This document shows positions 39,605 through 64,000 of a stretch of 64,000 nt of DNA, piece by piece. Under the pieces are notes generated by a model. It was given only the letters and a program-made list of their open reading frames with translations, ran no database searches and was not told the DNA's origin. This DNA is from Candidatus Levyibacteriota bacterium. Lineage in GTDB: Bacteria; Patescibacteriota; Microgenomatia; Levybacterales; UBA12049. Positions within the stretch are counted from its first letter, which is position 1. Every line of letters starts with the position of its first letter. A program made the translations under genes and the position numbers. The stretch spans positions 618,815 to 682,814 of the forward strand of contig CAWBPM010000002.1 in assembly GCA_963790825.1 (NCBI GenBank), given 5' to 3'.

Positions 39605-41311
39605 TTACTGTAAGATTCCGTTGTTTGTCATTACTTGGTATATTTGCTTGGTCGAATCTGCCGGAAAAATTTGGAACGAACGTTGAATGTCTAAAAGCGC
39701 GCTGTTTTTATCGCCTAACTCGTACCGGGCAATTCCTCGCTCTATTAAAATTTTTGGGTCATCAGGGTTTTCTTTCAAAGTGCTATTCGTAAAACTCAGC
39801 GCTTTTTTATAATCATGCGCTAATAAATATACTCTCCCCAAATTTTCCGAAGCATCGATAAGATTCCCTTTATTTACAACGTAGAGATAATATTTTTCTG
39901 CTTGTGTATAATCTTTTTTCTTTTCGTAATATATGCCGATATTATCCCAAGCCGTCCACCAATTCGGATTAAATTGTATTGCTTTTTTAAAATGCGCCAG
40001 CGCTTGGTCACTATTTCTTGCAAATAATTCACTCCCCAGATTATTTTCGAGTATAAAATTTCCCCCGGTAAATTGTATATCATGCGAGTATAAAGTAAAA
40101 GCATCCGCATAATCTGCATTTCTTATCATAGTCTGAATACCAAGAGTCAAAAACACGACAGTAAAGAGAGCCAGTAAGACCGCTTCATGCCGTTTAATGA
40201 ATGTTTTGTACTTTTCCCCGACTACGCCAATCATTCCCAGCATGCCGATAAAGGAAAAGCTAAACCATCGTTCTGCAACAGTTTGATCGAGAGGAAAAAT
40301 TTGTATATGAAATAAGATTCCCATAAAGTACCAGACCGCAAAAAAGAGAAACAGATTTTTGAAATGATTCTTGGCTTTTACTAAAACAATGTAGATAAAT
40401 ACTACGATACAAACAAAAACAATATCCAGAATAAGCGGCAGATAAAAATCCTGTATATTTGGAGATTTAATAATCCACTCAGGAGCAAGATACGTAGCAT
40501 GGGGTAAAAAAAATGAAGAAATGTAATACCAGCCTATTTTAGGCATGGAGATTACACGTATACTAAGCGGTATACTTTGCATAAGAGATTGGGCTATATA
40601 GGTTGCGTGTTGTGTACTTGCGGATATCCGCATAAAAACATAAACAATTACTGCTCCTGAAACAAATGCAAGATTTATCAGTCTTTCTTTTATTCGTTTA
40701 CTGATAAAAAGATACGAATAAAATAATGTCACGAAGATGAAAAGCGCGCCTGTTTCTTTTGACATAAGAGAAAGGGTAAACAGTAAAGCGGCCAGTAGTT
40801 TTTTTCTATAACCTGCCGGCTTTTGTGTAAATAAAAGAAGTCCGCTGATACCAAAGAAAAAATATAAAACATCTTGTGCCACTGCAATATACACGGTTGC
40901 CTCTTGATTCATTAGATGTACAAGAAATATAAGCGAGGACAATAACGATATTTTTTTAGCAAAAAATCTCGATAATAAGAGAAATATTAAATAGCCGTTA
41001 CAAACCTGAAGAGTGATCATGGGAAATCTGAAGAATAATGGCGTGATGCCAAAAATAGATTTAATAATTGAAAAATAAAAAAAAGGGAAGGGTCTGTAAT
41101 ATTGACCTAAAAAAGTATGGCTATGGGTGAGATCTACCTGTGACTGAAAAAATGTAATAAAAGAATGCGGGAATAAGGGAATTATTTGCAGGTTGTAAAT
41201 TTCCGAATCGTCTCCGACAAGTCCGTTAAAAAAAGCGTTCGCGTAAACGATGATCCCAACTATAAAAAGAATGAGAAAAGCCGTACGGTTTGTAATCTTT
41301 AACCATTTCAT
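39605..41311 (-). CDS. polytopic membrane protein with C-terminal TPR repeats (PMT_2/TMTC-like putative glycosyltransferase)
   Basis: About 11 N-terminal TM helices beginning AFLILFIVGIIVYANAFFNGLVGDD. The C-terminal 170 aa carry TPR-like repeats (ALAHFKKAIQFNPNWWTAWDNIGIYYEKKKDYTQAEKYY...). Confidence 0.6.
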   Translation of the reverse strand: MKWLKITNRTAFLILFIVGIIVYANAFFNGLVGDDSEIYNLQIIPLFPHSFITFFQSQVDLTHSHTFLGQYYRPFPFFYFSIIKSIFGITPLFFRFPMITLQVCNGYLIFLLLSRFFAKKISLLSSLIFLVHLMNQEATVYIAVAQDVLYFFFGISGLLLFTQKPAGYRKKLLAALLFTLSLMSKETGALFIFVTLFYSYLFISKRIKERLINLAFVSGAVIVYVFMRISASTQHATYIAQSLMQSIPLSIRVISMPKIGWYYISSFFLPHATYLAPEWIIKSPNIQDFYLPLILDIVFVCIVVFIYIVLVKAKNHFKNLFLFFAVWYFMGILFHIQIFPLDQTVAERWFSFSFIGMLGMIGVVGEKYKTFIKRHEAVLLALFTVVFLTLGIQTMIRNADYADAFTLYSHDIQFTGGNFILENNLGSELFARNSDQALAHFKKAIQFNPNWWTAWDNIGIYYEKKKDYTQAEKYYLYVVNKGNLIDASENLGRVYLLAHDYKKALSFTNSTLKENPDDPKILIERGIARYELGDKNSALLDIQRSFQIFPADSTKQIYQVMTNNGILQ

Positions 41312-48441: not shown

Positions 48442-49515
48442 TCAAGACCTTGATTGGGCTGGGGTGATAAGTACCAGTTGAGGAGTTAATGTAGAAGCAT
48501 ACTCCAATGGTGTTTTGTAGTCAAGGGCTTGATGAGGGCGAATGCTGTTGTATTTGACTAACCATTCTGTTAAATCAACATTCGCTTCCGCTATGTCATC
48601 AAGCCCTACCTCTGAAAAATCGAGCCATTCTCTCTGCACTGTATGATTAAATTTTTCAAGACACGGGTTGTCTTTTGGGGTATGTGGACGAGAAAATATT
48701 TGTTGTATTGATAATTGTTCACAGGTATCTGAAAAGTGTTTCGCAAATTCTGATCCATTGTCTGAGTGTATGACTGACAATTTGTTCTCACTGAGGTATC
48801 GTAACCTCCTGAGAAAATCTGCGCCATTTTGTGATGAAGCTGTTGGATACACTCTTGCAAACCCAAGTTTTGTTTTATCATCCAAAGCGGTAAATATTAC
48901 TCTCCTTTGTCCATACCACCAGATAAGGATACTGTCGGTATGCCACAGTCTTCCCGGTTCCTTCATTGTGTGGATACGAATCCGTGGCTGTTTTGTCTTT
49001 CCTACCGTGTAGACTCGCTTCTTTTTCTTCTCTTGAAATAACTTGTGCTTTCGTATGACTCGTTCTATCTTCCAGGTTGTTATCTTCTGGTTATACCTGT
49101 TCTGATAAAGTACTTTCAGTTTTTGTTTACCTAGTTCCATGTTTTCTTTTCGAAGGATAATAATTTGTTTTTCTTCTTTTGCCGTTACCATCCATTCCCG
49201 TACCCTCTTGGGTCGCTTTGATTTCTCCTCTAAACAATATGCATTACTCCTGTCAAACCGTTGTACCCACCGCCTGAGACATTTGCGTGAAATCCCAAAA
49301 TGGAAAGCTGTTGTTGTTATATTCTCTTTCCCAACAGTATAATAGAATGCAATCCACTCCAATCGTAATCTCCCGTCGGAGGATATTCCTTCTTGTTTTG
49401 CCTGATAGCGATAGTAATCCCAGAAGTTCTCTTTTCCTTTTTGTATATCCCTCCATGTTTGGTACGTCCACGGATGGGCTGATACTGGCTTATGTGCTTT
49501 CGTTTTCATAGTCAC
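48442..49515 (-). CDS. IS481-like DDE transposase (HTH + rve integrase core)
   Basis: 357 aa. N-terminal HTH (FGISRKCLRRWVQRF) and DDE core with WHTDS...HSDNGSEF...RPHTPKDNPCLEKFNHTV. Confidence 0.85.
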   Translation of the reverse strand: MTMKTKAHKPVSAHPWTYQTWRDIQKGKENFWDYYRYQAKQEGISSDGRLRLEWIAFYYTVGKENITTTAFHFGISRKCLRRWVQRFDRSNAYCLEEKSKRPKRVREWMVTAKEEKQIIILRKENMELGKQKLKVLYQNRYNQKITTWKIERVIRKHKLFQEKKKKRVYTVGKTKQPRIRIHTMKEPGRLWHTDSILIWWYGQRRVIFTALDDKTKLGFARVYPTASSQNGADFLRRLRYLSENKLSVIHSDNGSEFAKHFSDTCEQLSIQQIFSRPHTPKDNPCLEKFNHTVQREWLDFSEVGLDDIAEANVDLTEWLVKYNSIRPHQALDYKTPLEYASTLTPQLVLITPAQSRS

Positions 49516-51509: not shown

Positions 51510-52517
51510 TCAGGATCTCTTTTCGCTTTCATCTGCTAATTTTACCAATTCATTATATTGCTCACCTATTTGAGTAATCGCAAAAGGACTATCTTTTCTG
51601 CTTTTCAATTGATAAATAGTGACAGGTAACGTCGTAATGAGTTCTGCAAGTTTTACTTGAGATGTTAACGTATCTTTTTTATTATCAGTATTAACTTCTG
51701 TAACGATCGGTATCCCCCCGACTTCGTCTACCTGTGAAACCCCGGCTTGCAAATCAGCCCTGTTATACGCATGGACTGCCATATCGACATTTTGTATCTG
51801 AATGCTCTGGTTAAGAAGCGCTGTTATATACTGCCCAAATTGCTGGTAATGAATTGACGGTCCTGAAATGGCAGCCAGAATTGGCGTAACCGGACGGCTG
51901 AGATGAAGAGATTTTAAAACAGCCAGAGTCTCTTTCGTAAAATAAGCAAACGTATCATAATTTTGATCCCACCAAAAGTTCGACTCATTCGGTTCATTCC
52001 CTATTTCAAGCCATTCCACGCTTTTATGCTCAGTAATCGCCAGGAGATCCAATTTTATGAATTCTTTAATTTGGGTTTCATTTTGCTTAAGTTCCGAAAC
52101 TGTCTTGGGCATTGAGTGAATAAAACGAAGGACCGCACCGTTATCGACAAATGTGTAAAAAGGAAGCTCTCCGGGATCATAACAGAAAATTACTTTTTTA
52201 TTTTCTTTATCTGCCTCGGTCAGTTCTTCTTCAACCTGAGGATTATTTTCAAAAGTACCATCTACACTGACCAGAGAAGTAGGACTGCCGATTCGCAAGG
52301 TATTAATATGCAGTTTATCTGTCCCTTCTATCATTGACTGTTCAGAAACACTAACACCTATTCGTGAGTCATAGCTTGTTGTAGTTGTTTGAGAAGCAGA
52401 AACAGTTTCGGACGGATGAGGAAAACCTGTAGAATAGAAGGTAGAAGACAAAAGAGCAACAGATCCTAATATTTTTCTTATTTGGTTCCTAGGCTTTAGT
52501 TTTTCAACCTGCGCCAT
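51510..52517 (-). CDS. secreted glycoside-hydrolase-like protein (clan GH-A-like, NEP motif)
   Basis: N-terminal signal-like segment ILGSVALLSSTFYSTG. WLEIGNEPN is a typical catalytic acid/base motif of GH5/GH-A TIM-barrel enzymes. Confidence 0.45.
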   Translation of the reverse strand: MAQVEKLKPRNQIRKILGSVALLSSTFYSTGFPHPSETVSASQTTTTSYDSRIGVSVSEQSMIEGTDKLHINTLRIGSPTSLVSVDGTFENNPQVEEELTEADKENKKVIFCYDPGELPFYTFVDNGAVLRFIHSMPKTVSELKQNETQIKEFIKLDLLAITEHKSVEWLEIGNEPNESNFWWDQNYDTFAYFTKETLAVLKSLHLSRPVTPILAAISGPSIHYQQFGQYITALLNQSIQIQNVDMAVHAYNRADLQAGVSQVDEVGGIPIVTEVNTDNKKDTLTSQVKLAELITTLPVTIYQLKSRKDSPFAITQIGEQYNELVKLADESEKRS

Positions 52518-52678: not shown

Positions 52679-53440
52679 ATGAGGCTCTTCGCTAAATTGG
52701 TAATCTCGTTTTTTGTTTTTACGTTATTTATTTTTAATCCTCCTAAGATGTTCGCAGTTACTGCTCCCCCTATTTGTAGCGCAGTGACCGCGTTTAATCT
52801 TACCTGTTCTCTTTCGGGTACAGCTACGTTTACAGCTTCTTGGGATTTATCTGCATATGGAGTACCAGCAGCTAGTAATATTTGCAATATTTATGTTTAT
52901 GCTGGCAGCAATGCCCATACTATTAGTCATACGTGTGCTGGCAGCAATGTTAGCATTACGGTTCCTGCTGATAATTCTCCGACTGTTTCAATCTACGTAA
53001 GCAATGGAATTATTGGTGATGTATGTTATAATGCTCCTCAAGGCACCATAAATAATGCTTGTGCTCCTCCCACTGCTACACCAATCCCTGCTCCTACTAC
53101 TCCCCCTGTTAACATTTATGCAGGCTGCGAAGGCAGCGCGGCAGACAACGCGGCTGACGTCTGGAAGCTAGATTGTATTCCTGTTGTCGCAGGACAACTG
53201 GTTAATTATGCTCTCATTTTCCTAGGAATCGTCGCGGTTATATTTATTATCTATGCGGGCTACAAGTTTATTACTTCCCGCGGTGATCCGAAGCAGGTTG
53301 AAGGAGCCAGAAAAATTATTACTTACGTTCTTATCGGCATCACGATTATTTTACTTTCATTCTCTATTATAGCCTTCATTGCATATATTACGGGCGTAAC
53401 ATGTATCGATGGCTTTAGTCTACATGCATGTAACACGTAA
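52679..53440 (+). CDS. secreted Cys-rich protein with TrbC/VirB2-pilin-like C-terminal hydrophobic hairpin
   Basis: Signal peptide, then a 150-aa Cys/Thr/Ala-rich region (10 Cys) with a PTATPIPAPTTPP linker. C-terminal LVNYALIFLGIVAVIFIIYAGYKFITSRG...IITYVLIGITIILL has two TM segments with a short basic loop, as in TrbC/VirB2 pilins. Confidence 0.45.
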   Translation: MRLFAKLVISFFVFTLFIFNPPKMFAVTAPPICSAVTAFNLTCSLSGTATFTASWDLSAYGVPAASNICNIYVYAGSNAHTISHTCAGSNVSITVPADNSPTVSIYVSNGIIGDVCYNAPQGTINNACAPPTATPIPAPTTPPVNIYAGCEGSAADNAADVWKLDCIPVVAGQLVNYALIFLGIVAVIFIIYAGYKFITSRGDPKQVEGARKIITYVLIGITIILLSFSIIAFIAYITGVTCIDGFSLHACNT

Positions 53441-54132: not shown

Positions 54133-57100
54133 ATGCAATTTTCCTTGATAAAATTTTATCCAAAAAGCTTGCACGTTTTCCGTATTTTCTCTACTCGATT
54201 TCTCGGAGTTTTTATTGCTTTGCTATTATTTCAAGCTACTAGTCCGGTTCAAAAAGCTTATGCGCAATATGCTGGCAATTTATTACAAAATCCATCGTTT
54301 GATACTACTTCACCTAATTGGCCTTCTCCTTGGTATATGTCTGTTTATCCTGATGCTGCTGCTACGGTAACTCAGGATATGTCAACGTATGTTGATGGAA
54401 ATTCCTCCGCACGAGTCGATATCAATACAGCCAGTCCGACCTTTTGGCATATCCAGCTACTGCAAACCGATGTTCCAATATCTCAAGGCGTTTCTTATAC
54501 AATCACCTTTTGGGCTAAGGCAACAACAGCTCGTACTATCAACGTTGTTGATCAAATGGGACTCTATCCCTATAACTCTTATTTCAGTCAGGATATCGAT
54601 ATCACTACCTCATGGCAACAATATACAATTACATTTACTGCTCCCGTAAATGACTCGCGTTCTCTTTTTACTTTTAACATAGGACTGCAAACCGGTAGTG
54701 TTTGGTTCGATGCTACGTCATTCCACTTTACTCTGCCTGATGATTATTGTTATGGACAAGGTGTCTATTTATATACCAACATAAATTGGACTGGTGCGTG
54801 TGCTAGATTTACTGCTGATACTCCTGATTTAACCAGTAGCATAGGCAACGGCACTGCTCAATCCGTTAGACTTGTAGGTGACTACGCTGCGACATTGTAT
54901 TCGGGTACAAACTATACTGGATCATCAAGCGCAGTTACTTCCGATGTCGCTGATCTTAGTACCACTGATGTTGGTCAAAAAGCTGTTTCTTCATTACAAA
55001 TTGCCGTACCTACTCCGACTCCTACTATACTTCTTGCACCTACAGCTACTCCGAGCGGCACAACTTACTCGATTACCGGAAATGTTTATAATGATCTTAA
55101 TAAAAATGGCGCGAAAGATTTAAGTCCGACATGGCAACAACTTACCAGCACCGTTACTGTAGATTATAACGACAGAACCAGTCTGGGAATTTCTGTTATC
55201 ATGGAAGGCGCATCCGGTACAGATTCGTTTCAAGTAGATGATATTTCTTTACAATTGGACAGCGGCCCAAATCTAATCACCAACCCCGGGTGTGAGGCAG
55301 ATACAAGCGACTGGGCTGGAACGCAAGCAACTCTTTCACAAGATACGACAGATTTTCATTCGGGTAGCGCGTCTTGTAATGTTCAGCAAACTACCGGAGA
55401 TCAATTTTCAATAAGCGACCAACCGGCTACTGTAAGTAATCCTCCGATGGGACAACAATATACAGCTACTGTTTGGGTCCGTACCGATTCATTAAATAAA
55501 CCGGTTTGGCTGTCTATAACAATGTCCGGTGGAGCCAATCCTGACGTAACTACGTATAGCCCAGCATTTGCTATGAACTCTAGTGAACCGAACTACAGCG
55601 GAGGAGCTGTTATTCAGTTATCAGACGGAGAGCAAACGGTTACCGATGCGAATGGAAATTATGCTTTTAATAACGAGCCATCCGGAACATATACGGTATC
55701 GCTTGCCTCGACAAGTATTTATACCCCGACTACATCCTCTTCTCAAACAATTGATCTGACAAGTGGCGACCAAACTGTTAACTTCGGATTGTATTACACC
55801 AGCTATACTTTGGCGGGGAATGTATTCGTCGATACCAATGACGATGGAGTTCAAGACGGAAGCGAAACCGGTTTTCCCGCAGGAACTGTTACCATTGCAG
55901 GTCCTGTATCCAAACAAGTAACTACAGATTCAGCTGGAAATTATTCGATACCTAATCTTCCTACCGGTATTTATATTGTCCAATATGCATTACCGTTTGG
56001 TTATACAACATCCACGACCAATCCGGTTACGATAAGTCTGGTTGCCAATACCATAGTTAATTTCGGACTTTCTCCATATACTCCTGCAGTCCTTACCAAC
56101 TCATGTGGTGCTGCTGCTCCCGAAGCAGATATCATGCTTGTTCTTGATTCTTCCGGTTCAATGGGTGAAGGAAGCAAAATACATGATGCCATAGCAGCTG
56201 CACAAAGTTTCGTTGATACGGTTGCAAGTCAACACCCTGCAAGCCAGGTGGGATTAGTAACATATAGTACCACCGTCCATATTGTAGATCCATTAATGCA
56301 AGACCATGGTGCTAACCAAACAAAATTAGATCATGATTTGGGAACTGCTGTAGCAGACGGTACTACATGCGGTTTATGTGCTATGCAAGAAGCAGTTAAT
56401 CAGCTCGAAAGTGGACACCATGGTAACGATACGAGAGTAATTGTTTTTCTTACTGACGGAATCGAAAACTATTTGCCGGGAGGACATGATCAAGTCCCTC
56501 CGCAAACAGCTCAGGATCCGATTTTGGCTCTGGCAGATCAAGAACATAATGATCACGGAACGAGCTTCTTCACGATAGGACTGGGAACTGATGTTGACGC
56601 AAATTTCCTGCAAAAACTAGCTGACGATACCGAAGCGAAATATTACTTCACTCCTACTTCCGATCAACTAAATTCGATTTATGCCAGTATTTATTATGAA
56701 ATTACTCAGGGTGTCGGCCAAGTCAAGGGAACTGTGTATAAAGATGTTAATTTTAACCGCCGCTTAGATGCAGCTGATCTAGGACTGCCCAGTTGGATTG
56801 CCACCTTAAGCAATGGAACAACCACTTATACGCAAGTGACAGATGTATCCGGAAATTATACTTTCACCGGTATTTGTACCGGCGCATATACCTTGCAGGA
56901 GCAAGCACAACCCGGCTGGTTTCAGGACAGTCCGAGACACCCAAGCAACTATGCCATTAATGTCCTTAACAGTTCAGCCATAACCAAGAAAAACTTTGGT
57001 AATACCCAAGGATATACTGTAGCTGGTTTTGTTTTTGACGATAGAAATAAAAATCAAACTTTCGATTCCGACGAAACAGCATTTACGAGCGGACTTGATA

Positions 57101-58233
57101 TTACATTTACACCTACCAACGGCACTACTTCGACTGCCGGATCAGTGGTATATGATACCACATCCGGACAATACACTGTTCAGGGTTTATTGCCCGGATC
57201 ATACATAATTTCTTACTTAGGGCCTTTACCTGTCCACTATTTCCCTGTCTATCCGGTCGGTGCCCCTTTCCCGTCGTATGTTGTCACTGTCGGTCCCGGC
57301 TGCAGCGTTGACGGCACAACAGGAGGTAGTTGTGATCCTGCAGGTAGTATTTCAGATTTGGATTTCGCAATCAGCGATTCAACTCCCTGGATACAAATAC
57401 GAGGTTTAGACGGCAGATTCGATAATGGTTACGAAGATAAAATTCCTCCCGGTATTACGGCAGCTTGCGGACCATATGAAGCAGTTCCCCAATCTTCAAT
57501 TCCTCCGGCTACTCCCGGAATTATTTTCTCAGGTGACCAGACAAGTTTGTTTGACTCGGGATCATCATCTACTACCGGTTGGGTTGTCGGTGGGCCGACA
57601 TATCCGGAAGTATTTACCCCTAAAACTGCCGGCGTAATGAAAACTTCTTATAATTATCTTCTGAGTCTTGCTCAACAATCGAACGTACCAATTACCGATC
57701 TCTCAACCATTTGCAATCTGAGCAATTGTACTTTGCCTAACGGTCTTTCACACGGAGTTTACCAATCTAACGGTGATCTTACGTTAAATAGCTTTATATT
57801 CCAAGGAAATAGTAATTATGTCATATTGGTAGCTGGAAACTTACATGTTATGGGAAATATCCAAGTAACTTCCGGTAGTACTGCCATTTTTTCTGTTGGT
57901 AAAGATATTATTTTCGATAAAACTATCGGAGATCTTAATCCTATTTGTCCACCGACGTCTTCTCATATCGAAGGCTTATACAGTAGTGATCAGAACATCA
58001 TAATCGACGGTAATGACAATTGCGTGGTTGGTCCGGATAATATGCTAAACGTTCAAGGCGCATTGGTCGCCAATGCCGGTTCCACAGGCGGTTCGTTGCT
58101 TTTGCATAGAGATCTCTGCGGAAATAATTTTATTGGCCCGGCTTTAACTGTTACCCAGCGGCCTGATTTTATTCTAAATGCTCCTGATTTTATTAAGCAG
58201 CAAAACTATTTTTTCCAGGAAGTCGCCCCATAA
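54133..58233 (+). CDS. giant secreted surface protein: CBM4/9-like carbohydrate-binding modules + Cna-B/SdrD-type repeats + von Willebrand factor A domain + C-terminal beta-helix-like region
   Basis: Signal peptide FLGVFIALLLFQATSPVQKAYA. NLLQNPSFDTTSPNWPSPW...ITFWAKATTARTINVV is CBM4/9-like, and a second such module follows (GPNLITNPGCEADTSDWAG...VWVRTD). Repeated GNVYNDLNKNGAKD, GNVFVDTNDDGVQDGSETG and GTVYKDVNFNRRLD segments are SdrD-B/Cna-B-like. The vWA MIDAS motif is IMLVLDSSGSMGE...T...VIVFLTDG. Confidence 0.7.
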   Translation: MQFSLIKFYPKSLHVFRIFSTRFLGVFIALLLFQATSPVQKAYAQYAGNLLQNPSFDTTSPNWPSPWYMSVYPDAAATVTQDMSTYVDGNSSARVDINTASPTFWHIQLLQTDVPISQGVSYTITFWAKATTARTINVVDQMGLYPYNSYFSQDIDITTSWQQYTITFTAPVNDSRSLFTFNIGLQTGSVWFDATSFHFTLPDDYCYGQGVYLYTNINWTGACARFTADTPDLTSSIGNGTAQSVRLVGDYAATLYSGTNYTGSSSAVTSDVADLSTTDVGQKAVSSLQIAVPTPTPTILLAPTATPSGTTYSITGNVYNDLNKNGAKDLSPTWQQLTSTVTVDYNDRTSLGISVIMEGASGTDSFQVDDISLQLDSGPNLITNPGCEADTSDWAGTQATLSQDTTDFHSGSASCNVQQTTGDQFSISDQPATVSNPPMGQQYTATVWVRTDSLNKPVWLSITMSGGANPDVTTYSPAFAMNSSEPNYSGGAVIQLSDGEQTVTDANGNYAFNNEPSGTYTVSLASTSIYTPTTSSSQTIDLTSGDQTVNFGLYYTSYTLAGNVFVDTNDDGVQDGSETGFPAGTVTIAGPVSKQVTTDSAGNYSIPNLPTGIYIVQYALPFGYTTSTTNPVTISLVANTIVNFGLSPYTPAVLTNSCGAAAPEADIMLVLDSSGSMGEGSKIHDAIAAAQSFVDTVASQHPASQVGLVTYSTTVHIVDPLMQDHGANQTKLDHDLGTAVADGTTCGLCAMQEAVNQLESGHHGNDTRVIVFLTDGIENYLPGGHDQVPPQTAQDPILALADQEHNDHGTSFFTIGLGTDVDANFLQKLADDTEAKYYFTPTSDQLNSIYASIYYEITQGVGQVKGTVYKDVNFNRRLDAADLGLPSWIATLSNGTTTYTQVTDVSGNYTFTGICTGAYTLQEQAQPGWFQDSPRHPSNYAINVLNSSAITKKNFGNTQGYTVAGFVFDDRNKNQTFDSDETAFTSGLDITFTPTNGTTSTAGSVVYDTTSGQYTVQGLLPGSYIISYLGPLPVHYFPVYPVGAPFPSYVVTVGPGCSVDGTTGGSCDPAGSISDLDFAISDSTPWIQIRGLDGRFDNGYEDKIPPGITAACGPYEAVPQSSIPPATPGIIFSGDQTSLFDSGSSSTTGWVVGGPTYPEVFTPKTAGVMKTSYNYLLSLAQQSNVPITDLSTICNLSNCTLPNGLSHGVYQSNGDLTLNSFIFQGNSNYVILVAGNLHVMGNIQVTSGSTAIFSVGKDIIFDKTIGDLNPICPPTSSHIEGLYSSDQNIIIDGNDNCVVGPDNMLNVQGALVANAGSTGGSLLLHRDLCGNNFIGPALTVTQRPDFILNAPDFIKQQNYFFQEVAP

Positions 58234-58292: not shown

Positions 58293-61244
58293 ATGGAAAA
58301 TTCTACCGATCCTGTCGCGCGTATACCACGAAGTAAGGCAAGAATAGTAAGTATACTCTTCTTACTTCTCTTGGTTATTGCTATTCCGTTAACGGTTATT
58401 ACCTTGCAGCACCGTCAGGAAACCAGACAAAGGGCAAGTACTACGTCTATTCCCGCCTTCGTTCAAGAAAATGAAAATAAAATAACTTCCGGAACAACGG
58501 TCAGTACGACCTTTGCCAAACCAAACACTGCAGGTAATCTGATCGCTGTCTATGTGCTTTGGAACAACGCTGGGACAGCTTCGATAAAAGACAGTTTGGG
58601 AAATACCTACACCAGCGCAACTGGCCCTTTGAGTTGGAACAATAACACCTGGAGAGGACAGGTCTTTTACGCCAAAAATATCTTAGGTGGCTCCAACACG
58701 ATTACAGTCACCTTCTCGCAAGGTGTCACTTCTTTTGGCATTATGTATACACATGAGTATTCCGGCCTTGATCCTGCCAATCCTATTGATGTTACCCAGG
58801 GAGCAATTGGTACGTCTTCAGCTATGAGTAGCGGATTGGTAACGACAACCAATGCGAATGATCTTATCTTTGGAGCCGGAGCTTCAAGTGCAGGTATAAC
58901 CGCTGGAGAAAGTGGCTTTACTGTCAGAACAACTGGATATGGCAATATGACAGAAGACGAAGATGTGACTAATACCGGCTCGTATGCCGCAACAGCAACT
59001 CAGAATAGTGTTGCATGGATTATGCAAATGGTTGCTTTTAAAGCAGCTAGCACCACGCTTTCCCCAAGTCCAACTCTCGCCACAGGAACAGCTGGTGTTT
59101 GCAGTACAAATGCACCGGTTGACGTAGTTTTGCTTGTTGATACCTCTGGAAGTATGTCTGAGCCGGCACAATCTGGATCAACAGCAACAAAGATTACACA
59201 ACTAAAACAAGCAGCCACAAGCTTTGTTAACGGTGCTCTTGGACTAGCAAATAATAATTATGAAATAAGTCTTGTATCCTTCACAGATAAAGCAACCATA
59301 CTTTCAGATTTCACCAATAACGTCTCGACCTTAACATCCGACATAAACTCATTACAAGCAACGAACACCACCTGCACAGAATGCGGGGTAGACGCTGCTA
59401 ACCAAGAAATAACCAATCATGGCAGGAGCAATGTAAAAAAGGCTGTCATACTTCTAACCGATGGATTTGCAAACGTAATCGAAAAAACAGCCGGAAATTA
59501 CACAAGTTCAGTTGACCCTGCAAGCTGTACTGCAACTCAAAATAATGATAAAGCTTGTACGCTTGCTGAAACACCAACACTTTCATTAGTAACCACAGGA
59601 CACACTGCAAGCAATACAACATATTTTACAATTGGACTTGGCACAGCCGGAACTACAGTAAATCAAAACTTCCTCCAGCAAATTGCCGACAGCACGACAG
59701 GACAATACTATAACGATCCAACAGGAAACGATTTAACTAGTATCTATACCAATCTCCAAGAGGTCATAGGTCAAGGCGGCATAAGTGGTTTTGTCTTCAA
59801 TGATACCAATGCAAATGGCCAATACGATTCTACCGAAACGAAAGTGACGGGTAGAACTGTTACGCTCTCCTCAAGCGCGAGCGGAACCTCCACACAATCA
59901 ACCGTAACAGATGCGACAGGTGACTATTCGTTCGTTGGGCTATGTAACGGCAATTATACGATAACGGATAGCATTCCCTCAGGCAGCATTATTACCGACC
60001 CCAAGACAAATAACGGCGTATACATTGACACAATTACAAATGATCAAACAATCCCGAATCAAAACTTCGGAGAAGCAATAATTCCGACATCTACACCAAT
60101 ACCCACTCCCCCATCTGCTCCGGTAGTTACAATTAATGGTTGTATCACAGGACCTGTGAGTGGAACGAACAATTTAACCCTTTCCTGGAATGATAGTAAT
60201 GTCTCTTCAGTCAATATAGGGACAGACCCATCATATTCTACCTATTACGCTAAGAATGCTCCAGGAGTATTAAGCACAACAGCTCCCATAGGTTTTTTTG
60301 GGGGTAGCAGTAACGTCTCAGGATTACAACTCGTGCTTAGTCCTAATACCACTTACTATGCTACAGTTTGGGATGGAGTCACCAGTCAGCTAAGTAGTCA
60401 AGCTCCTTTCTCACTTTCTCTTTGCGCCACTCCAACTCCGACGGTAACATTAACACCGACACCAAAGCCGACGAATACACCCACTCCCACTGCGACTCCT
60501 GTACCGACGTCTACCCTAACACCCACACCCCGCCCGACGAATACACCTACTCCAACCCCAACTTTTACTCCTACACCTACTCCAAGACCAACCAGCACTC
60601 CGACACCTATTCCTACCGATACGCCCTTCCCAACCAGTACGCCGGTACCCCTAGCTACTACCCTTAATTTTACAGTGTTCCTCCACGGTATCGGAAACAG
60701 TGGAGATAATGCCAACCCGAATACTTTTTCTTTAAGTAATCACAGCCCGCTTCACCCGGAACGCCCAGCTACTATCGAAGTGTATGATAGTAATAATCAA
60801 CTCGTTAAAAGCACTACGGGTACACTCACGTACAGCAGTAATGCAGGAAATTTCACCGCCAATACTATTAGCCTAGGGACAGCATTTACTACCGGAGATT
60901 ACAATATTAAAATAAAAACAGATCGCTATCTGAAAAAATTAGTGCCGGGAATAGTACACATTACTGCCGGACAAAGTAATCTTGTACCAACGGTAACACT
61001 GGTTGCCGGAGATATTAACGGGGATAATAATTTAAATATCCTTGATTACAATACCTTGCTTGATTGCGGCTATGGAGCGTTTACTCCGCTTCCCATGACT
61101 GATCCGAACTCTCTTTATAACAGTGCTTCCTGTCAATCTCACCAGCCGTATGTGGCCAATGCTGATCTTAACGACGACGGAACTGTGGACTATACTGACT
61201 TCAATTTATTTGTCCGCGAGTTATCTGTACAAAATGGAGATTAA
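58293..61244 (+). CDS. membrane-anchored surface protein: lectin-like beta-sandwich + vWA + SdrD-B repeat + Pro/Thr linker + conserved beta module + C-terminal dockerin-type double EF-hand
   Basis: N-terminal TM helix [21 protein letters not shown]. vWA MIDAS motif [13 protein letters not shown]...[37 protein letters not shown] is SdrD-B-like. The (PT)n linker spans 60420-60660. The C-terminus [20 protein letters not shown]...[22 protein letters not shown] matches the dockerin calcium-binding loop pattern D.N.DG....D..L twice. Confidence 0.7.
60420..60660. repeat. Pro/Thr-linker coding repeats ([10 protein letters not shown]...)
   Basis: Degenerate tandem ACNCCNAC-type codon repeats. They generate spurious antisense ORFs at 60398-60715 and 60422-60667. 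Confidence 0.8.
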
Positions 61245-62559
61245 TAAAAAAAAAATTATTCACAAAGATGTATTCATAGGTTTGATTTTGGGACTTCTGG
61301 TTATTAGTATTCCCTTAACTGTTTTTATTTTGCAAAAATCACAGGAGAGCCGGTCTCGTGCTACTGCTGCTACGACCCTTTCTTTTATGCCCGCTTCTAC
61401 CCAGACCAGTCCGCTTCAGTTTACCGTGAATGATAGTTTTATACTTAATCCGACAATTAATCCCGGCACCAATTTAGTCACTTTGGTAAAATTGGAAATT
61501 ACCTATGATCCGTCTAAACTTGCACCGAACGGCGCGAATTCATTCGCGCCGAATACTGCAGCATTTCCGGTTATTACGCAACAGCCCATTTATTCCCCTG
61601 GGGTTATTCAAGTAATTATGGAAATCGGTAGCAACCCCACTAATGCAATTCAGACAACAACCAGCCTGGGTACGATTAGTTTTAATGCGCTTTCTCCAAC
61701 AACTTCGGGAACTCCGACACAGGTAGTTTATACAACTACTTCTGAAGTGCTTTCACTTGGCAGTAATGACCAAGCTGCAGAAAATGTGCTTTCTTCAACA
61801 ACTCCTGCTTTTATCGAAATCAATTCACCAATTCCGACTCCCACTAATACCCCTGTTCCTACATTAACTCCGACACCAACATTACTTCCGACGAATACTC
61901 CCACCCCAACACCTACCAGTACGCCGATTCCGACGGATACGCCTTTCCCGACCAGTACTCCGGTACCGTTGTCCACAGTCCTTAACTTCACTGTCTTTCT
62001 CCACGGCATCGGCAACAGCGGAGACAACGCTAACCCGAATACTTTTTCTTTAAGTAATCACAATCCGCTACATCCGGAGCGTAATCTCTCAGTTGAGATT
62101 TATGATAAGACAAATCAGTTTGTTTCTTCGTCTTCAGGAACTCTCGTGTTTGACGCGAATGCAGGAAACTTTAGCGCAAGTATTGATATGGGGACTGCTT
62201 TTTTGACAGGTGATTATAATATTTACATCAAATCAGATAAATATCTCAAGAAACTTATTCCCGGAATTCAAAAAATAACAGCCGGACAAACAAATACTGC
62301 AGTAGTAACAACGCTTATTGCCGGAGATATCAATGACGATAATACGCTTGATATTCTTGATTATAATGCCCTTTTAGATTGCGGCTATGGAGAAATAACC
62401 TCGCTTCCCATGACAGATCCGAATTCCGTATTTAATAGCGCGATGTGCCAAGCACACCAACCGTATACTATTAATACAGATTTGAATGATGACGGGATTA
62501 TTGATGCAACCGACTTTAATCTTTTTATTCGTGAACTATCTGTACAAAATGGAGATTAA
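61234..62559 (+). CDS. membrane-anchored cohesin-like + Pro/Thr linker + conserved beta module + dockerin protein (paralog 2)
   Basis: Start taken at [12 protein letters not shown] (ATG 61234-61236, overlapping the stop of the upstream gene). TM helix [21 protein letters not shown]. The N-terminal domain [39 protein letters not shown]...[10 protein letters not shown] resembles cohesin strands, including the YDP..L motif. The C-terminal 190 aa are about 85% DNA-identical to 60640-61244, including the dockerin repeats [20 protein letters not shown] and [22 protein letters not shown]. Confidence 0.65.
61835..61975. repeat. Pro/Thr-linker coding repeats in paralog 2
   Basis: [45 protein letters not shown]; spurious antisense ORF at 61728-62027. 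Confidence 0.8.
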
Positions 62560-62575
62560 TAAAAAACACTAAACT

Positions 62576-64000
62576 ATGAGAGGCTTTTTAAGTTCTAAAA
62601 GAAATGCATCTTTGGCCTTACTGACGCTTCTACTTCTTATCAGTTTGCCGGTAACCCTAATCGTCTTGCAAAAACCTCAGGAAGATAGAAGTCATGCGCA
62701 GGCTTCAACCTTGCTTTCGTTTAGTCCCGCTTCAACACAGACTTCTCCTACGCAAGTAAGTCTTAATGATTCGGTCAGTTTACAGCCGATGCTAGACCCG
62801 GGAAATAATTTAGTCTCGATAGTAAAATTAGAAATTGATTATGATCCTACTAAGCTTGCGCCTGATGGTACAAATGCTTTTACCCCAAACACGACATCTT
62901 TCCCCACTGTTCTCGAAGGGCCGATATATGACTCAGGTAAAATGCAGGTCCTCATATCTGTTGGTTCAGACCCGACCAAAGCCATAAGTACGCCAACTTC
63001 TCTCGGAACAATAAAACTAAAAGCAATTTCTCCAACAAATAATGCTACAACAGAAGTAACATATAATACAAATGTCGTCCAAATACTTTCTGTCGCCTCG
63101 TCCGACCAGGCAGCTGAGAATGTTTTTTCCTCAGCCACTCCTGCTTATATTTCAATAAACTCTTCTTCAACGCCAACGATAACAACAATGCCAACCTCAA
63201 CCAATGTAAAAATAATTTCTCCGGCGCTGAATGATACTATATGCATGGGTAAGCCCTATACTATTACCTGGCAAGGAACGACAGACATACAAGGCATCAT
63301 GTTTCAAATAGTCTCCCCGCAACCAAACAGTTTTGCTGTACCCATATCATCGGTTTTAGCCATAAATGGTCAGCCTGTTTCCGGAAAAAGCGGGTATATC
63401 CAAGACTCATACATCTGGACCGTCGGCCAGTTGCTCAGTAATCAGTTTGGTGCACTCGCCCCAGGTTTCGGCTATAAGCTTGAGGCGTTGGCATATGTCG
63501 GTAACTCTGATACAGTTTTTGATAGCGATTTATTTAGTATCTCTAATAATAGCAATTGCAGCAACACACCAACTCTTGTTCCAACAAGTACCCCTATACC
63601 TAGTACTACTTTAAGCCTAGCTATATTTCTACACGGCGTTGGCTTAAGTGGAGATAATGTAAACGAAAACAATTCAGATCTTAGCAATAAAATGCCCCTG
63701 CACCCTGAACGTAACCTAATAGTAGAGTTCACAAATGACCAAAACAAGCTCTTGGCGACAGCTAATACGACAATTACCTATAATAGTGATCTTGGCGATT
63801 TTATCGGTACTGTTCCAGTACCCAACGTTGTTGGGAACGGATCATACAACATAACGGTAAAAACCGACAAGTATCTCAGAAAACTTGTTTCGGGTATTCA
63901 AAATCTAAGGTTATATCAAATGAATACTTTACCCAAAATTACACTCACTGCCGGAGATGTTAATGGCGATAATAAGCTAGATCTGCTTGACTATAATATA
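62576..64000 (+). CDS. membrane-anchored cohesin-like + beta module + dockerin protein (paralog 3), 3' end beyond window
   Basis: Not in the ORF track because there is no stop in the window. I translated it without stops from ATG 62576 to 63999: MRGFLSSKRNASLALLTLLLLISLPVTLIVLQKPQ...[52 protein letters not shown]... It is collinear with paralog 2. Later segments are LAIFLHGVGLSGDNVNENNSDLSNKMPLHPERN, ...ITVKTDKYLRKLVSGIQ, and ...TAGDVNGDNKLDLLDYNI, the first dockerin loop. Confidence 0.65.
   Translation, partial: MRGFLSSKRNASLALLTLLLLISLPVTLIVLQKPQEDRSHAQASTLLSFSPASTQTSPTQVSLNDSVSLQPMLDPGNNLVSIVKLEIDYDPTKLAPDGTNAFTPNTTSFPTVLEGPIYDSGKMQVLISVGSDPTKAISTPTSLGTIKLKAISPTNNATTEVTYNTNVVQILSVASSDQAAENVFSSATPAYISINSSSTPTITTMPTSTNVKIISPALNDTICMGKPYTITWQGTTDIQGIMFQIVSPQPNSFAVPISSVLAINGQPVSGKSGYIQDSYIWTVGQLLSNQFGALAPGFGYKLEALAYVGNSDTVFDSDLFSISNNSNCSNTPTLVPTSTPIPSTTLSLAIFLHGVGLSGDNVNENNSDLSNKMPLHPERNLIVEFTNDQNKLLATANTTITYNSDLGDFIGTVPVPNVVGNGSYNITVKTDKYLRKLVSGIQNLRLYQMNTLPKITLTAGDVNGDNKLDLLDYNI

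Follow-up and report, generated by a model that had tools for sequence, protein, structure and literature searches.

In the type II pair of Clostridium thermocellum, the nine-cohesin scaffoldin CipA carries an immunoglobulin (Ig)-like X module directly before a dockerin with asymmetric repeats, at or near the C-terminus, and this X module-dockerin dyad (X-Doc) pairs with the cohesins of SdbA, OlpB or Orf2p, which are cell-anchored by S-layer homology (SLH) domains or sortase (PDB 2b59, 3kcp, 5g5d). In Ruminococcus flavefaciens, X-Doc dyads with atypical insertions attach both the scaffoldin ScaB and the non-enzymatic substrate-binding protein CttA to the cell-anchored single cohesin ScaE. Cohesins are also found outside cellulose degradation, as in Archaeoglobus fulgidus (2xdh) and in the toxin complexes of Clostridium perfringens (2vo8, 2jh2, 2w1n), and a survey of such non-cellulosomal cohesin-dockerin modules was reportedly made by Peer and co-workers in 2009. 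Dockerin-like repeats are present in giant Omnitrophota proteins. For Candidate Phyla Radiation (CPR) bacteria, the accessible part of one report describes SEML1_0315 of the saccharibacterium Southlakia epibionticum as an essential dockerin-domain envelope protein, proposed to target host glycans for adhesion or degradation, without mention of a partner cohesin or of how the locus is organised (Wang et al., 2023, PMC10633639). In the full-text literature outside subscription journals, no account could be found of cohesin and X-dockerin forming a system in CPR bacteria, Patescibacteria, Microgenomates or episymbionts. Here, such a locus is described at the end of a 64,000-nt stretch of DNA (the window) from Candidatus Levyibacteriota bacterium (assembly GCA_963790825.1, contig CAWBPM010000002.1, positions 618,815 to 682,814). 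With a probability of roughly 0.6, it is read as a non-cellulolytic, calcium-dependent cohesin/X-dockerin surface assembly of adhesins and glycan-binding proteins in a Levybacteria-type member of the Microgenomates (CPR) with a tiny genome.

Three genes of the locus (g1, g2 and g3) are located in the window and a fourth (g4) just past its end, where a second assembly of the region (L001) was used:

58293..61244 (+): g1, open reading frame (ORF) of 983 aa with leader, beta domain without assignment, VWA, SdrD_B, FN3-like region, Pro/Thr linker, X module and dockerin
61234..62559 (+): g2, ORF of 441 aa, a cohesin-X-dockerin 'adaptor'
62576..64000, continuing beyond the window (+): g3, full length 539 aa (P0002, L001 544-2163), with cohesin, extra Ig-like domain and X-dockerin
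L001 2257-2892, ~90 nt past the stop codon of g3 and shortly after window position 64000 (+): g4, 211 aa

ORF listing and translation showed that g1, g2 and g3 are intact and co-oriented. Their products are identical to the database proteins P0122, P0001 and P0002, respectively, all of which are encoded on one 751,017-bp contig. The second assembly supplied the complete g3, with its full dockerin, and the co-oriented g4, after which a convergent Pro_CA_2 gene follows. The three proteins share a K/R-rich N-terminus, a hydrophobic segment of ~21 residues, Pro/Thr-rich linkers and a conserved beta module, and at the C-terminal end they carry two Asp/Asn-rich loops of 12 residues, each followed by a helix.

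The conserved module and the C-terminal loops were assigned to the following features:

60654..60992 (+): g1 X module, Ig-like beta sandwich that includes the conserved ...PLHPER loop
61005..61241 (+): g1 dockerin, two calcium loops with a Cys-containing insert of ~29 aa between them, C-terminus ...RELSVQNGD
61972..62313 (+): g2 X module
62314..62556 (+): g2 dockerin, two calcium loops, C-terminus ...RELSVQNGD, matched by Pfam Dockerin_1
63605..64000 (+): g3 X module plus the first loop of the dockerin (DVNGDNKLDLLD), which continues beyond the window
61999-62082 in g2 (aa 256-283) and 60678-60761 in g1 (+): conserved X-module loop, predicted local distance difference test (pLDDT) below 50 in AlphaFold2 (AF2)

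Within the window, an X-Doc profile matched only g1 (E 1e-93, aa 788-983), g2 (E 3e-95) and g3 (E 5e-46). The calcium loops, Pro/Thr linkers and conserved module, which had first been noticed by a model from the DNA letters and ORF translations alone (the original prediction), are all present in the translations. In the loops of g1, g2 and g3, D or N is found at positions 1, 3 and 5 and D at position 12, in two tandem loop-helix repeats, and these four positions are invariant or near-invariant in alignment A1. Pfam Dockerin_1 (PF00404) matched g2 with 24.3 bits versus a gathering cut-off of 22.9 and was matched by 22 of 50 homologues (best E 1.5e-8), which bears out the dockerin of the original prediction. 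In g1 it reached 14.8 bits (aa 905-977), under the cut-off, and for full-length g3 only a 'faint' precomputed match was found. The profile of the C-terminal ~195 residues matched the CipA X-DocII (2b59_B) at E 5.9e-5, and the alignment crosses the X-to-dockerin junction, since it starts in the last strands of X and reaches calcium loop 1. The X-Doc family profile also matched 4fl4_A, a type I dockerin (E 0.0018), and 1ohz_B non-significantly (E 0.075). Judged from these profile matches, what had been called a '100-aa beta module' is an X module, which together with the dockerin makes up a dyad of the kind seen in the type II dockerin of CipA.

In addition to this order, with an Ig-like X module immediately preceding a C-terminal or nearly C-terminal dockerin, the asymmetric dockerin repeats, the Pro/Thr linkers and a cell-anchored partner cohesin, a role given to g4 by analogy, resemble the C. 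thermocellum type II pair. Unlike the X-Doc of C. thermocellum, however, the dyad described here has its own conserved X loop and a Cys-containing dockerin insert. No other stretch of the family is as well conserved as the near-invariant loop of ~27 residues inside the X module (LHGIGxxGDNxNP...LSNKNPLHPxR), which has no equivalent in the X module of CipA and was not placed by AF2. The insert of ~29 residues between the two dockerin repeats is family-specific, and the extreme C-terminus ...RELSVQNGD is near-invariant in alignment A1.

The N-terminal halves of g2 and g3 contain the following features:

61363..61833 (+): g2 cohesin domain (aa 44-200), from AF2 model, Foldseek and hhalign
61834..61971 (+): g2 Pro/Thr-rich linker, read from the sequence, of varying length in alignment A1
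62705..63169 (+): g3 cohesin domain (aa 44-198), profile match, 58% identical to the g2 cohesin

For g2 aa 44-200, AF2 gave an all-beta model with a pLDDT of 93.8, and when this model was compared to the PDB with Foldseek, the top 50 matches were all cohesins (E 2.5e-9 to 5e-5, TM-score 0.54-0.72). These matches span types I, II and III, including the type III cohesin of ScaE (2zf9), as well as the non-cellulosomal cohesins of A. fulgidus and C. perfringens, with similar scores across types. A cohesin-domain profile made from homologues matched only g2 (E 2e-62) and g3 (E 7e-65) in the window, and Pfam Cohesin (PF00963) was matched at E<0.01 by 24 of 50 full-length homologues. According to the model, the N-terminal domain of g2 and g3 therefore has the predicted cohesin fold, as had been proposed from its residue pattern.

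In the g4 product, an N-terminal transmembrane segment and a short stalk rich in Pro precede a stand-alone cohesin. The protein was matched by Pfam Cohesin with 28.8 bits, over the gathering cut-off of 24.1, and all 12 g4-type proteins, g4 and 11 relatives, were matched by the same family. The g4-type profile matched PDB cohesins (E 2e-5), of both type I (6kg8) and type II (3l8q), and the g2-type and g4-type cohesin profiles are homologous (hhalign probability 98.3%).

If the locus is a surface assembly, all components would be exported through the N-terminal hydrophobic leader, g2 and g3 would serve as single-cohesin adaptors (cohesin, Pro/Thr linker, X-dockerin), g1 as cargo and g4 as the membrane-anchored stand-alone cohesin. 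The calcium-dependent X-dockerin of one protein would plug into the cohesin of another, and adhesin or glycan-binding cargo would in this way be tethered to the cell envelope and extended from it on flexible Pro/Thr linkers. Most likely, the assembly would serve to attach the bacterium to host cells or polysaccharide surfaces. How ultrasmall CPR/Patescibacteria cells attach to hosts or substrates is largely obscure outside a few cultured Saccharibacteria, and the locus offers a concrete, lineage-wide candidate apparatus. Since it is built from well-understood modules, its wiring should be mappable in vitro with recombinant pairs of cohesin and X-dockerin and does not depend on culturing.

Compared to CipA, where the X-Doc belongs to a nine-cohesin scaffoldin, the X-Doc is found here on adhesin/lectin cargo and on single-cohesin adaptors, in a CPR lineage instead of Clostridia. 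The anchor candidate is an N-terminal transmembrane segment, not SLH or sortase; no SLH match was found in g1 to g4 by Pfam and no LPXTG motif by inspection. The R. flavefaciens type III system differs in that ScaE is sortase-anchored and in its cargo spectrum, and no sequence-level match to type III dockerins was obtained. As in the non-cellulosomal systems, the modules occur outside cellulose degradation and a single cohesin and a dockerin can be present in one protein. Unlike those, the modules described here form a large lineage-wide family at a syntenic locus; the X module is obligatory, the dockerins come in several subtypes per genome and VWA/SdrD-B domains serve as cargo. SEML1_0315 is comparable, at the level of its published description, as a dockerin-domain surface protein of a CPR bacterium. 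Hitherto characteristic of clostridial and ruminococcal scaffoldins, the X-dockerin dyad is thereby extended to a distant phylum, to adhesin cargo and to candidate transmembrane anchoring.

The family is large. More than 500 close homologues with the g2 architecture (~400 aa) were identified, and NCBI, where it names them, calls them 'cohesin domain-containing protein [Patescibacteria group bacterium]', so that the original statement that such a system is not routinely annotated is only partly true. The X-Doc profile matched 2,246 cluster representatives among 1.84 billion, 821 of them at E<=1e-30. In the best 150 of the 2,246 representatives, which are 122-1,440 aa long, the X-Doc is located at the C-terminus or at most ~25 residues from it. 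These roughly 2,000 new X-Doc sequences, with several putative specificity classes, could serve as orthogonal protein-assembly parts.

A survey of related genomes, which the original prediction had proposed, was performed by scanning species-representative genomes and yielded 72 loci from 48 assemblies, mostly titled Levyibacteriota or Levybacteria. They contain 74 ORFs with cohesin and X-Doc, 67 with X-Doc only and 19 with cohesin only, all in co-oriented arrays, and each of the 93 cohesin-bearing ORFs has a single cohesin match. In 43 of the 48 assemblies, cohesin and X-Doc modules are present together at one locus. The typical array order is a cohesin-X-Doc protein (~400 aa), VWA/SdrD-B cargo with X-Doc, a longer cohesin-X-Doc protein and a short transmembrane cohesin (~215 aa), and g4-like cohesin genes of ~215 aa were found beside the arrays in at least 12 related loci.

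The conserved neighbours of the arrays are dCTP deaminase (dcd), thymidylate synthase (thyA), thymidylate kinase, DHFR, SHMT and Pro_CA_2, and in the 48 Levybacteria-type assemblies the array occupies one conserved chromosomal position (thyA/dcd ... Pro_CA_2). Upstream of the array in the window, thyA, dcd and a second dcd are present, and the housekeeping neighbours are 70-87% identical to those of related loci. Because of the same thyA/dcd neighbours and this identity, the array is considered an ancestral, vertically inherited locus of the lineage, of which the organism of the window is a member, and no local oddity. A dedicated sortase or peptidase nearby was considered and rejected, since the conserved neighbours are housekeeping genes only. 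Many public records of metagenome-assembled genomes with the locus (L003, L009, L011, L013 and others) are titled 'uncultured Gammaproteobacteria', 'Methylomirabilota', 'Sulfotelmatobacter' and similar; given the Levybacteria-type synteny and the 70-87% housekeeping identity, these labels are probably wrong.

The cargo of the system was analyzed with Pfam in g1 and in 15 cargo proteins from related loci. In g1, the adhesin-type cargo is located as follows:

59121..60029 (+): g1 VWA and SdrD_B domains (Pfam), adhesin-type cargo

VWA (aa 277-486, E 3e-16) and SdrD_B (aa 497-579, E 2e-14) were both identified in g1 as originally described. The 'lectin-like' domain that had been placed before them (aa 50-255) could not be substantiated, as the N-terminal domain (aa 43-256) gave no Pfam or PDB sequence match. 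On the X-Doc-only proteins of related loci, VWA with SdrD_B is by far the commonest cargo, and CBM_4_9, CBM96, PA14, RicinB with CBM_4_9, Big_1 and CarboxypepD_reg repeats were also found. Since adhesin and sugar-binding domains are present in place of cellulases, the locus probably encodes an attachment apparatus.

The sugar-binding cargo also bears on a different explanation, namely that the dockerins recruit carbohydrate-active enzymes into a cellulosome-like complex that degrades plant or microbial polysaccharide for a fermentative CPR cell. CBM_4_9, CBM96, RicinB, PA14 and a BD-FAE esterase on X-Doc proteins would fit this, as would cargo regions without Pfam family that are beta-helix-like or contain HExxH, and the upstream ORF 51510-52517 with an EIGNEPN motif that by eye is reminiscent of clan GH-A. 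However, no glycoside hydrolase or polysaccharide lyase family and no CBM3 was found in g1, in the 15 cargo proteins from related loci or in the scanned segments of the window, each cohesin protein found has a single cohesin so that a multi-cohesin scaffoldin is lacking, and VWA with SdrD_B dominates the cargo. Such an enzyme complex is therefore very unlikely. A classical cellulosome was rejected, as the cargo scanned contained no glycoside hydrolase, polysaccharide lyase or CBM3, the 93 cohesin-bearing ORFs included no multi-cohesin scaffoldin, and g1 to g4 showed no SLH or LPXTG anchor. The Pfam scan returned no family for the FN3-like region of g1, the middle domain of g3, the C-terminal 377 aa of the upstream neighbour g0 or ORF 51510-52517.

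In two related-locus proteins (L035 7995-10115 and L062 6990-9557), an internal X-Doc is followed by an alpha/beta-hydrolase esterase of the BD-FAE type, which is the only clear enzyme attached to the system among the cargo scanned. A protein of Candidatus Levybacteria RIFCSPHIGHO2_01_FULL_37_33 (L070 6624-8528) combines several canonical type I-like dockerin repeats (Dockerin_1, 63 bits) with a C-terminal X-Doc, which suggests that a second, X-less dockerin class and multi-dockerin connectors are present in the lineage.

The dockerins of the related loci fall into subtypes. Of 31 dockerins of the subtype with the long Cys insert and the tail ...SVQNGD, 28 belong to cohesin-bearing proteins, and of 47 of the short-insert subtypes with tails ...STQPGQ or ...TNLGGQ, 37 belong to cargo without cohesin. 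This split between adaptors and cargo is as expected for hierarchical specificities, in which adaptors dock on the anchor and cargo docks on the adaptors. For the genome of the window, two wirings could be derived from the sequences: either g1, g2 and g3 would all dock on g4, or the adaptors would bind each other and g1.

The second wiring leads to the idea of a self-polymerising fibre, in which the cohesin of each cohesin-X-Doc protein binds the X-dockerin of the next copy, or g2 and g3 alternate, and the VWA protein g1 forms the cap. The result would be a non-covalent head-to-tail filament, functionally comparable to a sortase pilus that has a VWA adhesin at its tip. The presence of exactly one cohesin and one dockerin per adaptor, the shared dockerin subtype of g1, g2 and g3 and the many related loci that have adaptors and no short anchored cohesin inside the region fetched are in line with it. 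In addition, VWA cargo with SdrD-B/CnaB-like domains resembles the tip adhesins of Gram-positive pili. However, the separate adaptor and cargo subtypes of other genomes fit a two-tier hierarchy better than adaptor cohesins that would recognise their own dockerin class, and a conserved anchored cohesin gene is located beside the arrays in at least 12 loci. The fibre is therefore regarded as doubtful. Its fullest form, in which g2, g3 and their >500 orthologues polymerise head-to-tail into a calcium-dependent filament rooted on g4 and tipped by g1, with the leader as a sorting or processing signal for the subunits, is quite doubtful. If true, it would represent a new kind of bacterial pilus made from cellulosome parts and a host-attachment organelle of Levybacteria. 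Self-polymerisation and host attachment, both put forward in the original prediction, are inferences.

The N-terminal leaders of the three window genes are located at the following positions:

58344..58436 (+): g1 leader, hydrophobic aa 18-38, then QETRQRA (aa 42-48), read from the sequence
61270..61362 (+): g2 leader, hydrophobic aa 13-33, then QESRSRA (aa 37-43), read from the sequence
62606-62698 (+): g3 leader

In g1, g2, g3 and most X-Doc proteins, the leader is made up of a hydrophobic segment that includes [IL]P[LV]T and, after it, the motif Q-Q-[ED]-x-R-x-[RK]-A. Among 2,460 ORFs, the strict pattern was found in 86 ORFs of the family versus 12 other ORFs, all of which are in the same clusters. 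In the g2-type leader, A43 is invariant and P27 and Q37 are near-invariant (alignment A1). The cohesin-X-Doc proteins have an A-x-A/G signal-peptidase-like site after the leader motif, and the g4-type cohesins are without the QQExRxRA motif. This family-specific leader may be a dedicated sorting or processing signal. The description of g1, g2 and g3 as membrane-anchored holds as far as the presence of the hydrophobic N-terminal segment is concerned, which may be an anchor or a cleaved signal peptide. If the leader is cleaved, the proteins would be released and g4 would be needed for anchoring; if it is not, a lateral network of membrane-tethered proteins would result.

The leader is also one of several observations that speak against a surface assembly held together by cohesin-dockerin pairs. 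A separate hydrophobic segment is present at the N-terminus of each of g1, g2 and g3, and if these segments stay in the membrane, anchoring by cohesin and dockerin would be redundant. All three dockerins belong to the long SVQ subtype, which singles out no partner for the g2 and g3 cohesins. On the cohesin side, the Pfam Cohesin scan gave no match in g2 and 19.1 bits in g3, under the gathering cut-off of 24.1, and no cohesin was found by sequence alone when the cohesin-domain profile was compared to PDB sequences. On the dockerin side, the dockerin part of the AF2 model of the C-terminus has a pLDDT of 55-77, and Foldseek with this model returned non-specific Ig matches only.

The separate hydrophobic segments would suit an explanation in which the modules are kept without pairing, with the X-dockerin as a calcium-stabilised C-terminal binder of cell wall, S-layer or a host ligand and the cohesin as a membrane-proximal Ig-like spacer. 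The 27-aa X loop and the dockerin Cys insert, which are not present in characterised X-Docs, point in the same direction, and the near-invariant ...RELSVQNGD end could be a sorting or binding tag. On the other hand, 43 of 48 assemblies have cohesin and X-Doc together at a single locus, where the two are inherited jointly, and the subtype split between adaptors and cargo as well as the stand-alone anchored cohesins are hard to explain if nothing pairs. This possibility is accordingly rated very unlikely, and the assembly of adhesins and glycan-binding proteins by cohesin and X-dockerin is preferred.

The genes g1 and g2 overlap by 11 nt, with the g2 start codon inside the last g1 codons (...caa aAT Gga gat taa), and the junction string ATGGAGATTAATAA is found again at the end of g2. 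Overlap and duplicated junction were thus found as described originally. The recent tandem duplication that had been suggested on this basis was rejected, because the X-Doc DNA of g1 and g2 is 68% identical, with a maximum of 83% in any 60-nt block, and the junction string is repeated since both proteins finish with ...QNGD and a stop codon. The N-terminal DNA of g2 and g3 is 58% identical. Given these two identities, the duplication is considered old. Two antisense ORFs of ~100 aa at 60398-60715 (-) and 61728-62027 (-) are rich in GVGV repeats and located on the strand facing the Pro/Thr linkers. They are not genes but artefacts that mirror the repetitive coding sequence of the linkers.

Directly upstream of g1, a further adhesin-like gene is present:

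54133..58233 (+): g0, upstream neighbour, 1366 aa, with classical signal peptide, 2 CBM_4_9, 4 SdrD_B and VWA (Pfam)

g0 also contains a beta/gamma-crystallin-like region and a C-terminal region of ~370 aa without assignment. No match to the X-Doc or cohesin profile was found in it. The adhesin modules of g0 are similar, but a docking part is missing, and the gene may or may not be a member of the system.

No tRNA gene and no Rfam family at the gathering threshold was found in the window, and a promoter and terminator scan of L001 was uninformative, with fewer sites than in shuffles. Between the two dCTP-deaminase-like genes, two genes are located. The first, 51510-52517 (-), encodes an exported protein of 335 aa without Pfam match, in which the EIGNEPN motif, judged by eye only, recalls glycosidases of clan GH-A, and the second, 52679-53440 (+), a protein of the T4SS-pilin family (Pfam PF18895, E 5e-7). 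A transposase/integrase gene (rve, rve_3, HTH) at 48442-49515 (-) adjoins thyA, which indicates an insertion sequence element close to the locus. Linker O-glycosylation occurs in cellulosomal scaffoldins. A PMT_2-type glycosyltransferase fused to TPR repeats is encoded at 39605-41311 (-) and, by analogy, could speculatively be the enzyme that O-glycosylates the Ser/Thr/Pro linkers.

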